UHGV virus genome: UHGV-0184554
Reading direction: 5' to 3' (one strand)
From: a virus
Length of the DNA stretch: 23,835 bases
In this document: positions 15,001-23,835 of the stretch, in pieces
How positions within the stretch are numbered: position 1 is the first letter of the stretch
Layout of the letters: the number at the start of each line of letters is the position of its first letter
Position numbers: made by a program

Positions 15001-18000
15001 CCCAAGTTCATGCCCCAGCATTTTTTCAGTGACGTGGGGCATAATTCCTTCCCCAGATAAATTCGTTACCAGAGAACGCCTAAAATCATGCGTTCTCCAT
15101 TCAGGAATATCAATTTTCTCCCTTAACTTTTTCATGTACAAATTAGCCGACGAACGATCAATAGGTTTATCTATTTCCTGCCCGGGGAATAGCACATCAA
15201 AACCCGCATTAAGCAATCTCTCGATATAAGGTTTAACCTGAGTGAATACCGGACGCCGGATAATATTCCCCATTTTTGAATGCTCTTTTGGGGTTGTCCA
15301 GACCAGATCTTCCATGTTGAACTCACTGGCTGTCGCGAGACGTAGCTCAGAAAGTCTGGCCCCCCATAGCAATAGCAATTGATGTAACACCTTGTTGGAA
15401 GTAACTACTTTTGAGTTCTCCAGCGCCAGCCAAATTTTTGCCAGTTCCGTATAGGTAAGTACACGACTCCCTACATCTGGTTTTTTCCCAATATTCTTAA
15501 CACTAAGCTTGAGTAATTCGCATGATGGGATTAACTGGCGGCTGATACACCAGTTAATAACTGAACGCAGTTGTAACAACAAAACACGAGCCTTTTTCTT
15601 GTTGAGGCTTTCTTGTTTGTCAAAGAAACGAGCCCATGCCGATACTGGGATACTGGCAACTGGCGAGCCTTCAAACTGTGTGTACATAGTGTTGTACACG
15701 ACGGATCTGTAAAGCGTCTGTGTATTGGGTTTCAGATCAGTAACATACTTATCCCACCACTGATCCAGGCATTCTTTTAATGTCAGTTCGCCGTCACTGG
15801 GCGCAAAATAATTTTTAGGGTTAACTCCCTTCATGTACAATGCGCGCATCTCACCGACGATAACACGCGCGTCCTTCAGTGAAGTAGACGGATAGCGCCC
15901 GACAGTAAGACGTACTGGCTTACCATTCCAGCGATAACGGTACTGAAACGTGATAGTTCCTGCTGGAGTAATCCGCACACTTAACCCGTCACCATCGGTG
16001 ATTTCAGCAGGGCCAGAGTAGGGTTTTCCGTAGAGGCCTCGTAGTTTGGTGTCGCTCAGTGCCAATGCTTTATATCCTGTACACAAGTTTATAATGTATT
16101 CTGTACTCAATATGTACGCATTAGCAAGTGAACAAAACACTTTTCAACGCAAAAGAAGATAATCAACCATGAACAAAAACGAACTTACACCTTGATTTTA
16201 AAACCATAAAGACGGTATTATCAGTCATATGGTGAACAACCAAAATCAATACGCAACAATGTCCTCTTAGTTAAATGGATATAATGAATACAAGTATTAA
16301 CTAATTGATTTAAATACAGAAAGCACCAAAATAATCGTCATATCCGTACCCATTTATGTACACATCCCGTTAAGCATGCCCCGCACTTCCGTACGGGGCA
16401 TGTTCTTTACTCCACTCCCACTTTTTTGTTGTACTCGCGGTTAAACCGATCCACGGCAATTTTCATATCCCGCTCAACCGATTTCACCATCGCCGACTGT
16501 TGCGCCAGACTGAGAGTACTGTCGGCGTAAATAGCATCACGCTGTTTACGCAAATCCTTCAGTCTCTTCCGGGTATCCTGCATAAGCCCGTTCATCGACA
16601 ATTTTCCGTTGTTCTCGTCAATGAACGCCGTTCTTTCTGCACCGGTCAGACTCTTCAGCTCTGCGTGATACTGCGCAACCTCTGTCATCCGGTCGTACAT
16701 CTTCTGCTGGTCAGCATACGGCATCACCTCACCTGAAATTTTCCCCAGGAAGGGCACCTGCTGCTCCGGTATATCAATACCATTCAGCGATTTCACCGCC
16801 GCATCCGTGGTTTTGGAAATGAAGCGCCCTGTCCCTCCGGAGATATAGTCCACCCAGTATTTCAGCGATTCCGGTGTGATATCCACCGCGCCGGGACGGT
16901 ACTGGCTGCCACCTGAGAACGCATTCAGCCAGGATGCAAACGCCTTGTACGCTTCTGGCGTTGAACGTCTTCCCAGCTGGCTGTCAGGTTTTGGTGTACC
17001 AAACGGCATGTTCTCCTGGTAAATCTGCGCCCCCATGAAGTTTTCATTCATGGCAAGGTTCGCAAACGGACGCAGAATGGTCGGTGCTGCGTTTTTCAGC
17101 AATGCCCCCGACAACGTTTCCGACGTCTCGCTGCCGATCGGGCTGAATGCCCCCAGGATACCGCCGGCAACATTACCGGCAGCACGTGAAGCAGTCAGGT
17201 CGCCCGCTGCCACACCTTCAGCTGTATGACCAAGCAGGAAGAACACGTTGTACCCGTAAGGCAGAGGAATACTCCAGTACTCACCGGCCTTGCCCCCGAA
17301 CATCGATTTCATGATGACGAGGTTACGCTCTTTCACATGAGACGGTACTTTGTCGTACCAGTTAACCCCGTCATCATCCTCACCCGCCACACTGCGGTTA
17401 AGCGAGCCAAGCAGATAACCCGCTCCCACAGCTGCAAGCACGATTTTCTGCGGTACATTGAGATTCTTCCAGCGAAGGCGCTCCGGTAACGGCCCGTCGC
17501 CATTAAGATGTCCGAGCGTTCTCACCAGGTTTGCGGTCCCCTGAATGCTGGCGTTGGCAAACATGTACAGCGAGTTCATCAGCATCCCCTGCTCACCACG
17601 ACGGTTAAAGTTCACCGTCATGTTTTTGGCAAGAGACGCCGCCTGCTGGCGTGACAAACCGGCATCACGGGCGTGTTTATAGGCAGAAAGACGCAGAGCG
17701 TTTTCAACCGCGCCGTTGGCATCCTCGACCAGGTTCAGGAACGAATGCCATGCACCGATACTCTGGCCTTTCCATCCGCCCTTCGCCAGCGACACAAGGC
17801 GATCCATTTCCTTCTGCTGGCCCTCAAGGTCACCCATGTTAAACCAGCCGGTTTTACCTCCGTCCTCAACAAACTCTTTCCACACTTTCTGCCACTGTGC
17901 GCCTTTGCCCGTGAGGGTTTTACCCCGCAGACTGGCGTATACGGCTGACATGGCGGAACGGCTGTCTTTCACCACAGCCAGCGCGGATAAGTTATCCAGC

Positions 18001-21000: not shown

Positions 21001-23835
21001 TAGTGTGCTGCCGCCTTACCCTTACCACGGGCACCAAATGCCAGGCCAAGACGACCGTTCAGGGAAAGCGCTTTTGTCGGTACATTCAGTACTTCAGCAA
21101 GGTCATGCAGCGAGTCATAAGCCCGGTTCAAATCAGCCTGACGACGCGGACCTTCCACGTAGTTACCAAACTGCACACCACGAAAACCAAACGCATCGCT
21201 GAACTGCTTCGGTAAGACATCACCCTTGCGGCGTTCTGGCCCGGTACGATCGCGGTTGGTGGCGTTACGCTGCTCCTCACGGGAAATCTCACGCATCTCC
21301 TTCACATGACGAACAAGCTCATCACGATGTGAATCAATGTACTTACGCGCATCACTGGCTGACTTAAAGCCACCTCTCACCCGCATTTTGTTTTTGCCGT
21401 AAGCAATAAAAATATCGCCACTGCGGGTATTCCGGTATACGTCAAAGCTGATTTTGTCATCCGGTGACGGTGCTGTTTTTTCATCACCTTTCGCCTGTGA
21501 TTTTTCCTCCTGCTCTGCAAACCAGGCTTTTGCCTTTGTCAGTAATTCATCCCTGCTTTCCGAGAAAAAGAGATTGCTCCCCTTATTGTCCTTATTGCGC
21601 AGTGAATAAAGTTTCCGTGGCGGATCGTAACGTTTCCCTCCTGCCGCCTGATACACACCGGATACCACCCGATAAGCAGAAGCCTTGTCTATCTGCGAGG
21701 GTGGCAGCGTGCGTAACAGTTGCCATGTGTCCGCGTAACGGGCGGGCATTCTGCCTTCCATCCACTCAGCAAGCCGTCCGGCAGTCACTTTTCCTTCCAG
21801 CATTCCCGCCACACTTGTGCGGATGCTCTTTACACTCTCCACCCACTTCACTGCATTGAGTTTCGTCTTCGCCGGAATATCGCTACGATACAGCGCTATC
21901 ATTGCCAGGGTATCAGCATCGGCACCTTCGTTCGCCAGTTTTGCGTAGTCCGGTTTCGGGAACAGTTTGCTCAGCGGTTGCGTGACATAATCCCTGTCTT
22001 CCAGCGTTTTACCCAGTGTTTCGGCAAGCTGTGCATAACGGTGTTTTGCCGCGCCCTTAATTTCTTCACCAAAGTCTTCAATTTTCGCACCACGCGCCTG
22101 CTGGTGAGTGCTCGGTTTATCTACCGGCATCGGCACCTCAGTATCCGGAACATCGGTTATGGTCTGGCGATTATCCCCGGTCTGTCTGCGTGCTTCTGCC
22201 TGCTGTGCCAGTTCCGGAAGGGAGTCACGAACCATACGAGGGAGTGATTCAGGCTGTGGCATATCAACCCCACGCTGACTTTCAGGTGCAGGAAGTCCTT
22301 CACGCACTGGTGCTGTGGCGTTCTGCTCATCCGGTGACGGCAGACCACGACGAACCGGTTCGCCCTCCAGTATTTCCCCCCGGCGACCAGCGGCATTTTC
22401 CGGTGCCTGCGCACGTCCTTTCTGGAAACTCTGGCCCTTCACCTCACCGGTTGTGGTAAAACGACCACCACGTCCGGCCTGATTTTCATCCGGCGTACGC
22501 GCCACTTCTCCCGGTAACGGATATCCCTGTCCGGGATGAATATCGCCGGGAGCGGGAAGGCGTGGACGCTCAGTTAACTCCTGAGCTGTCGGACCGGCAT
22601 CACCTTCAGCCATCTGTGAACGCACCAGCTCTTCCGCCGTCGGCACGTTGCCACGGGCAAGGCGGGCCTGCACTTCTGTATCATCTCCCGTAAAACCCCG
22701 GAATCGCGGGTCACGCATGAACGCTGGCTGCTCCATCGGATCAGCATCAGCAATACGCTCTCCGTCAGCCAGGGTGTTAATGGTTTCCGTTGCCACATCT
22801 TCAGAGAACGCAGGATTATCCATTTCAACGGCATACTGATTCTCACCTTTCTTCACTACGGACGGTTTCAGGCCGGTGGCGCTGGCATTGCGAAAAACAT
22901 CGCTACCCATGGCGCTTTTCTCATCCGTGAAATAACGGTTGTCCGGACGCACCTTTTCAATGCGTTCCGCTGGTCTGGACGCACCACTCCCGTTAATTTC
23001 AATACGAACTTCATCCGGATCGCGGAACCGCACCGTCGGATAAATACTCCCGTCGCCATCATCTGTATTTTCTGGCTGTGCCTCCGGTCTGGCCTCCTGC
23101 TGAGGGCGAAGCACATCACGGATAGCCTGTAACTGCTGCTCTTCAGTCTCAGTACGCCCTTCCTTCAGGCTGAGTTTTCGGTATTCCTCAAGCAGTTCAG
23201 GACGCGGCTTCGCCTTCAGCTCATCCATCACCGCCTGTCGCTTCGCCTGTTCGTCCAGTTCATTTAATAACTGACTGGCGGCTTCCCGGCGATGAACGGC
23301 AGACGCGTCTCCCTCCTGAGCCATATCCGCATCAGCATACTGTTCCAGAAGCTGCTCGCGGTTCATGCCCTGCATGGATTCACGATGCTGTGCCACCGGA
23401 TCAACCGGTTCGGGTTGCGGAGCCGATTCGTCCTGAGGAACGCTTTCAGCCTCACGCATGGCGGTTTCTTCTGCGGCATGACGTCTGCCACGATATCCGG
23501 CAACCGCACCGAATGGTGCCCCCATCGCAGCACCAAGGGCTGCACCTTCGATCGTTGCGTCAGCCACGCCCTCCCCCGGTGACACATCCATTCCGGCGGT
23601 CTCACGCAATGCCGTGTTTTCCTGATAGCGTGAATAGCCACCCTGCGCCGCATTAATCGTCCCCTGTTCCGTGGCATTTCTGACAATGCCGCTTTTAACG
23701 GTCTTCGCCGTGCCCCGCATCGCCAGATTAAGCAACTGAGCATCGCCCAGTTTTGCCGCCATGGCATTCACAGCCAGCAATTCAGGATCTGTTGCCAGCT
23801 GCGCGCGCACCTCATCGGCAACACGCTCTTTTGCC

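Follow-up and report, generated by a model that had tools for sequence, protein, structure and literature searches.

The proteins closest to the one considered here are the phage-type polyvalent proteins (PMC5512222; Iyer, Burroughs, Anand, de Souza and Aravind 2017) and, within the Shiga toxin (Stx) phages, ORF80 of Sp5 and gp47 of phi24B. Deletion of Sp5 ORF80 (2793 amino acids (aa)) yields tail-less heads filled with DNA and no infectious phage, so that the gene is essential for morphogenesis; the mutant heads do not bind an anti-tail-fibre antibody, and ORF80 was classed by its authors as a tail-formation gene (PMC5155283). The phi24B protein gp47 was found in the virion proteome, where it was called abundant, and is missing from the cryo-electron microscopy model; its authors list LPD5, LPD1, LPD38 and MuF_C domains and propose an encapsidated ejection protein (2026 phi24B preprint). 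Here, we analyse the giant gene of the virus genome UHGV-0184554, a stretch of 23,835 nucleotides referred to below as the window. Its product is 95% identical to phi24B gp47 (vb_24B_48, ADN68472.1) over all 2475 visible residues and 98% identical to Sp5 ORF80 (ECs1242) over the C-terminal 915 aa; both are orthologues. The domain set is the same in these two proteins and in the Stx-phage proteins of PHROG 616, and the differences amount to strain-level variation, with a divergent linker around residues 540–590. The giant protein is a member of a known, annotated family; its recognition is correct, and it is not a new system. What is added here is a C-terminal fold of about 915 aa without a solved relative, a near-absence of cysteine throughout the family and the position of the metallopeptidase motifs outside MuF_C. 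We consider it very probable that the giant frame encodes a virion-internal polyvalent protein of a short-tailed Stx-type phage, the last gene product of the late operon, which would be ejected as a constant module together with its cargo.

The giant gene lies on the minus strand (16407..23835). Translation is uninterrupted from 23834 to a TAA stop at 16407–16409 and gives 2475 visible sense codons; the 2467 aa of the open reading frame (ORF) listing are counted from the first in-frame GTG. Visible residues 1–2475 match positions 313–2793 of the 2793 positions of the PHROG 616 profile (5512 bits). The nearest chromosomal copy, with 97.9% nucleotide identity, encodes a full-length protein of 2788 aa, from which we estimate that about 313 N-terminal codons lie off the window, past 23835. 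The gene has a G + C content of 54%. Four Pfam families, LPD5, LPD1, MuF_C and LPD38, are each matched above their curated cut-offs within this single protein of more than 2475 aa, which supports its assignment, at the level of sequence, to the phage-type polyvalent proteins. Like these (PMC5512222), it is giant and multidomain, has a virion-gene context in its relatives, and carries zincin hub domains, a PBECR-type domain and LPD domains including the phage-only LPD38; it differs from them in that its visible part has no methylase, helicase, ParB or ART domain.

In the numbering of the visible protein, an acidic and proline-rich N-terminal part is followed by LPD5, a first zincin domain (HEWFH, with LPD1), a second zincin domain (HEIIH), MuF_C and the LPD38 module of about 915 aa. 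No Pfam domain is found in residues 1 to about 700 of the visible part, and the first 700 residues of the full-length homologue give no Pfam hit above threshold and no lysozyme or transglycosylase domain. Conservation of this region is low: windows of 75 residues with starts at residues 76–676 are 15–51% identical to the Salmonella-type homologue, with the sole exception of residues 376–450 (71%). It includes a Gly/Ala-rich, glycine-zipper-like hydrophobic stretch (residues approx. 92–118; 23481..23561, minus strand), for which the equivalent residues of the full-length homologue give sub-threshold glycine-zipper matches in Pfam (E 0.13–0.21), and the degenerate Pro/acidic repeats VRRGLPSPDEQ, VREGLPAPESQ and PQPESLP (residues 494–532; 22239..22355, minus strand).

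Motif scans of the visible 2475 aa detected no Walker A, DEAD, DPPY, S-adenosylmethionine motif I or lysozyme motif. The giant protein matches no tape-measure, tail-fibre or adhesin family in Pfam, PHROGs or NCBIfam, and a sequence search of the PDB with the whole visible protein returned nothing at E ≤ 1. The first-pass annotation, made from the sequence alone, had described an open frame of more than 2467 aa with its N-terminus off the window, carrying two HExxH motifs, degenerate Pro/acidic repeats and a Gly/Ala-rich stretch; it saw no helicase or methyltransferase motif, judged the protein to be neither a repetitive adhesin nor an obvious tail fibre, naming a match to a structural family as the finding that would speak against it, and likened it to polyvalent proteins. 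On all of these points, it agrees with the present analysis.

The two HExxH motifs are HEWFH (residue 965, window 20928–20942) and HEIIH (residue 1232, window 20127–20141). From the composition of the protein, 0.035 such motifs are expected, and two or more have a probability of 1.5e-4 (20,000 shuffles). Residues 700–1560 were modelled with AlphaFold2 (AF2) from 95 sequences. The block-mean predicted local distance difference test (pLDDT) values of this model are mostly above 80 over LPD5 and the first zincin domain, approximately 71–88 over the second, and below 50 over MuF_C. LPD5 itself (residues 732–881; 21192..21641, minus strand; Pfam PF18799, E 1.7e-42) has block means mostly above 90. 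Each HExxH motif sits on a helix preceded by a small beta-sheet, and structure comparison with this model, which holds both segments, returned zinc metallopeptidases almost exclusively. Among the 60 fold matches listed are anthrax lethal factor, MtfA, TTHA0227, Pro-Pro endopeptidases, YbeY, minigluzincins, IrrE, Spartan/Wss1, neprilysin and thermolysin; no known cell-wall hydrolase was recognized among these 60. The modelled structures support a zincin-type topology for both segments.

The first zincin-like metallopeptidase domain (residues 863–1121; 20472..21248, minus strand) includes the LPD1 helix region (residues 1042–1121). It has a histidine ending strand 2 (AHYEP) and an aspartate three residues past the HExxH motif (HEWFHSLD), two features that have been described for a widespread clade of phage-type metallopeptidases (PMC5512222). 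The NCBIfam family CLCA_X also matches this domain (E 7.5e-44, under the family cut-off). The second domain (residues approx. 1156–1349; 19788..20369, minus strand) contains HEIIHHAMEH, and about nine of the 14 distant LPD38-family homologues compared keep both the pattern HE[ILV]xHxG and an E..AH further downstream. Candidate third zinc ligands are the glutamate of EMAARAFE, in LPD1, and that of AGEFLAH, both conserved in the alignments; judging from this conservation, the EMAARAFE helix downstream of HExxH probably carries the third ligand of the first zincin domain. The earlier proposal that the HExxH segments fold as zincin-like domains is thus favoured by motif, predicted topology and fold matches, and the third ligands stand as candidates.

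MuF_C (residues 1431–1520; 19275..19544, minus strand) is matched by Pfam PF18819 with 64.6 bits for a cut-off of 27.6. The family was placed in the phage BECR (barnase/EndoU/colicin-RelE, PBECR) RNase fold (PMC5512222), and the domain is a predicted RNase. The phi24B preprint labels MuF_C a metallopeptidase; the paper that defined the domain (PMC5512222) gives it the RNase fold instead. Both HExxH motifs, at residues 965 and 1232, are outside MuF_C: the metallopeptidase motifs belong to two zincin domains, whose likeness is to enzymes that cut proteins.

The last approximately 915 aa of the protein (residues 1561–2475; 16410..19154, minus strand) form a conserved C-terminal module. Used as the sole query, it matches 8657 representative clusters (4760 with E ≤ 1e-30); the complete proteins among the top 150, which reach lengths of 5181 aa, have the match at their very C-terminal end. 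LPD38 is present in all 15 sampled members; their N-terminal domains vary and include ART, InPase, Sno/SNF2 helicases, DdrB-ParB, RadC, PBECR, SLT and methylases. This pattern supports the view that the C-terminal approximately 915 aa are the constant part, to which different N-terminal cargoes have been joined. The Pfam LPD38 match (residues 2158–2363; 16746–17363, minus strand) covers a small part of the module; the true conserved unit is the fold of about 915 aa, of which the Pfam family describes only about 190 aa. AF2 models it as a single, mainly helical unit (pLDDT 84, predicted template modelling score 0.80). Beyond generic helix bundles, no solved relative was found in the PDB by sequence or structure searches. 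When compared with viral models by Foldseek, the module superposes over approximately 920–1000 columns onto the last segments of other phage giants, including those of Ralstonia phage Alix and E. coli phage PTXU04, with query-normalized template modelling scores mostly of 0.6–0.89 among the better matches; this search returned LPD38 proteins only, and no annotated ejection protein. An LPD38 protein of PTXU04 is required for infection, and the LPD38 giant of the Bcep22-like phage JC1 is virion-associated.

The visible 2475 aa contain no cysteine. This is a property of the whole family: 134 LPD38-family representatives have 48 cysteines in 361,088 residues (0.013%), and 108 of them have none, compared with 1.57% cysteine in the other ORFs of the window. 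The founding paper on polyvalent proteins makes no mention of cysteine avoidance (PMC5512222). In phage P27, the giant protein and the four proteins encoded directly upstream (218, 148, 97 and 421 aa) are all cysteine-free; the portal, the terminase subunits and the further late-operon products gp67, gp68 and gp62 have 0.8–1.9% cysteine and the major capsid protein 0.5%. Family-wide cysteine avoidance fits, as circumstantial evidence, the passage of the protein in an extended state through an oxidizing compartment; an approximately hundred-fold avoidance is cheap and testable evidence on this question. The four small cysteine-free proteins may be co-packaged partners of the giant protein.

These four genes, which lie outside the window, are gp55–gp52 in P27 (locus L004, 23464–26148) and occur also at L003 12059–14039 and, as ECs1238–1241, at L007 3312–5954. 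One of the four proteins has two transmembrane segments, and its homologue in another genome is annotated by PGAP as a bacteriocin. A bacteriocin homologue was found in phi24B virions and set aside as a contaminant (phi24B preprint). ORF79, the counterpart of the 421-aa protein, is listed beside ORF80 in the Sp5 paper (PMC5155283).

Other giant or related proteins share parts of this architecture. DarB of P1 and the DarB-like giants of Bcep22-type phages (JC1 gp69, Bcep22 gp75) have the LPD38-containing C-terminal region in common with the window protein (PHROG 10089, E 5e-29), and the portal, capsid and head-closure proteins of JC1 are homologous to those of 933W. The DarB-like giants, for example JC1 gp69, are annotated with methyltransferase and helicase domains, whereas neither is present in the visible part of the window protein. 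A P1 DarB-type antirestriction identity was rejected: there is no methyltransferase or helicase hit in Pfam and no such motif, and the similarity is confined to the LPD38 region. Both domains together would not fit into the missing 313 N-terminal residues, whose counterpart in the homologue has no Pfam hit. Since both domains are absent, antirestriction through DNA modification is not expected. The virion RNA polymerase gp50 of N4 is likewise very large and encapsidated, has a zincin-like domain and is delivered at infection (PMC5512222); no RNA polymerase domain was detected by Pfam in the window protein, and the likeness is drawn from the published description of gp50.

Stand-alone LPD5 + LPD1 proteins of approximately 560–600 aa (e.g. 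Gemmobacter caeni IQ03_01332) are 37–48% identical over about 90% of a query made of LPD5 and the first zincin domain, and the FGFRGVQFGNYVE and HEWFH blocks are conserved in them. They differ in being free-standing, and the one locus inspected has a transposon or conjugative-element context, not that of a phage late operon. There, the G. caeni protein (574 aa; L005 8001–9725) is encoded between a TniQ/TniB/Mu-transposase module with an H-NS gene and a PcfJ gene with a gene for a Sno-type helicase of 1707 aa. This locus indicates that the LPD5–zincin unit also travels alone in non-phage mobile elements.

In the window, the giant gene is adjacent to, and co-oriented with, a gene for a tyrosine integrase with an arm-type DNA-binding domain (14896..16140, minus strand; Pfam Phage_integrase and Arm-DNA-bind_3), whose homologues are annotated from a later start (389 aa). 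The two genes are separated by a gap of 266 bp with 35% G + C (16141–16406). Comparison of the window with lysogen junction sequences locates the attP core, GTCCTCTTAGTTAAATGGATATAA, at 16261..16284 on the plus strand; it is identical to the first 24 nt of the tRNA-Arg gene. On the int side, chromosomal sequences match the window up to 16284–16287 and no further. In E. coli CEC13091, int is followed downstream by sequence that leads directly into the tRNA-Arg gene, and the window has exactly the first 24 nt in common with this gene before diverging. In E. coli UCPROB-002, the 24-nt core follows host sequence downstream of yfdC and is itself followed by window sequence 16285–16406 and then by the giant gene. 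The copies of the core at lysogen junctions are at L002 20725–20748 and L003 3462–3485. In lysogens, the int end adjoins the tRNA-Arg gene and the giant gene adjoins chromosomal yfdC, about 60 kb away. The integration target is therefore the tRNA-Arg gene, and the giant gene is phage DNA; with attP between them, int and the giant gene come to be at opposite ends of the prophage, and the gene order of the window is that of the circular genome or the virion. A tRNA scan of the window found no gene, only the 24-nt fragment within attP. Upon integration, the 5' end of the tRNA is rebuilt from phage DNA on the int side, and a copy of the core is left beside yfdC. The integration site differs from that of Sp5, which is beside the rut operon.

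The gap also contains a G + C-rich hairpin (16374..16403), 4 nt past the stop codon of the giant gene, so that both the hairpin and the AT-rich gap of 266 bp are as first described. The hairpin has a stem of 10–11 bp (approx. −21 to −25 kcal/mol by RNAfold) and a loop of 10 nt, reduced to about 4 nt in the RNAfold structure by two added inner pairs. A terminator consensus scan of the gap called nothing. A T-rich tail (TTCTTT) is beside the hairpin on the plus strand only and not on the strand of the gene; because of this, and of the 10-nt loop, we do not call it a proven terminator. In a lysogen, it would face transcription from the host (yfdC) side and may block read-in rather than end the late operon.

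We propose the following function for the giant protein. The conserved, cysteine-free C-terminal module would bring the protein into the head and, at infection, out through the tail, and it might form part of a trans-envelope path; the domains upstream of it would be the cargo. The two zincin domains would most likely cleave the polyprotein itself or host proteins, and MuF_C, as a candidate RNase or RNA-binding domain, would act early in the infected cell. The protein would be needed to complete the portal vertex and would be released upon infection. A further proposal, which we advance tentatively as possible, is that the near-cysteine-free module of about 915 aa alone determines both packaging at the portal vertex and passage out through the tail, carrying any N-terminal cargo into the cell, with the four small upstream proteins co-ejected; if the module is needed at the portal vertex, the tail-less mutant phenotype would be explained. 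As to the earlier suggestion of delivery with the DNA, packaging is borne out by proteomics of the 95% identical phi24B protein; for the giant protein, as for LPD38 proteins, we infer entry into the cell from presence in the virion combined with absence from ordered density. This indirect basis is the first of several points that weigh against the proposal. MuF_C matches Pfam well above the cut-off, yet its pLDDT is below 50, the homologues of residues 1131–1560 being mostly short, near-identical fragments. The fibres and the probable scaffold of P27 are also cysteine-free; since several other virion proteins of the same phage lack cysteine, its avoidance is suggestive and not specific. The C-terminal module holds a single, weakly hydrophobic helix (Kyte–Doolittle 1.35), which makes a membrane-channel role speculative. 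Finally, the tail-less phenotype of the Sp5 ORF80 mutant counts against a pure ejection protein. To our knowledge, classical ejection-protein mutants, such as those of P22, are not tail-less, and completion of the portal vertex or tail assembly must therefore be at least part of the function.

The same phenotype, with the authors' classification of ORF80 as a tail-formation gene (PMC5155283) and the position of the gene as the last of the morphogenesis operon in relatives, would also suit a tail-assembly or tail-structural protein (a scaffold, a ruler or a part of the tail) that is not ejected. This we regard as distinctly unlikely: the phi24B protein, which is 95% identical, occurs abundantly in virions and is absent from the resolved portal, adaptor, nozzle, needle and fibre densities; the families of tape-measure, tail-fibre and adhesin proteins give no match; and the ART, helicase, methylase and nuclease cargo of the relatives would make no sense in a purely structural part of the tail. 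An ejection protein whose metallopeptidase digests peptidoglycan to open a conduit across the periplasm is the mechanism proposed in the phi24B preprint, and some relatives do carry cell-wall enzymes (SLT in one of the 15 sampled, an LT-like domain in JC1 gp69, and relatives named LT_GEWL). The metallopeptidase of the preprint is MuF_C, however, a domain that has been placed in the PBECR RNase fold (PMC5512222), and the idea is weakened because both HExxH motifs lie outside it. The zincin folds resemble MtfA, lethal factor and Pro-Pro endopeptidases, that is, enzymes that cut proteins or peptides, and neither the visible part nor the first 700 residues of the homologue has a lysozyme or transglycosylase domain. 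Peptidoglycan digestion is thus unlikely, and finding the metallopeptidase motifs in zincins like those of protein cutters means that the cell-wall-digestion idea needs testing.

The adjacency to int had led the first-pass annotation to suggest an element-end effector or the gene at which the element integrated. A host or boundary gene tied to the integrase in this way is extremely improbable: the attP core lies between the two genes, lysogen junctions place them at opposite ends, and in Sp5 the giant gene is succeeded by eight further annotated prophage genes. The junction sequences refute this reading. An AAA+ ATPase-type motor protein, suggested by the COG1483 (AAA+ superfamily) domain reported in ORF80 (PMC5155283), has an equally minute probability, as the visible 2475 aa contain no Walker A motif and no P-loop family was found by Pfam or NCBIfam, or in the first 700 residues of the homologue. 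The COG1483 assignment was not reproduced by motif or family scans. A virion-internal, ejected polyvalent protein with at least some part in completing the portal vertex or assembling the tail therefore remains the reading that we prefer.

The window phage is a short-tailed, Stx-type phage of the 933W/Sp5/phi24B type (Traversvirus, Sepvirinae). The best matches to the whole window are vB_EcoP_phi349 and phi346. The region matches 187 phage records; in 186 of them, at least 80% of the query is covered at a single place with 90–99% nucleotide identity. Nearly all of these phages are Stx-converting or otherwise from Escherichia/Shigella, and the P27 and phi24B records that were opened are assigned to Traversvirus, Sepvirinae. 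The gene was found in 423 of the 5426 complete E. coli genomes, where the PGAP/RefSeq name is LPD38 or LPD5 domain-containing protein. In relatives, it comes after the terminase, portal, capsid, adaptor, fibre and nozzle genes and the four small genes; it closes the late operon in P27 and phi24B, and in Sp5 eight more annotated prophage genes come after it. The content of the window itself is limited to the giant gene, attP, int and the early region. Enterohaemorrhagic E. coli arise through Stx phages, and in these phages approximately 14% of the genome is taken up by the giant gene, which is essential. The P27 copy has a tandem duplication of 74 aa (EHVVTPAEYQTIIK...KFxxAW) in the second zincin domain, just past the HExxH helix (L001 2762–11365), which accounts for its length of 2867 aa, compared with approximately 2790 aa elsewhere.

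The early region encodes a PAPS-reductase-like protein (6807–7685, plus strand), a DUF4145 protein on the opposite strand (10718–11464, minus strand) and an MT-A70 family methyltransferase (13440–14066, plus strand). It also contains, at 11693–12440 on the minus strand, a gene for a RelE-family toxin (144 aa; Pfam RelE, E 2.6e-46) and, downstream with an 8-nt overlap, a gene for an HTH_3 protein (106 aa), which form a toxin–antitoxin-like pair. In the best-matching prophage (97% identity), the counterpart of this region is annotated as a HigA antitoxin and a ParD-family antitoxin.

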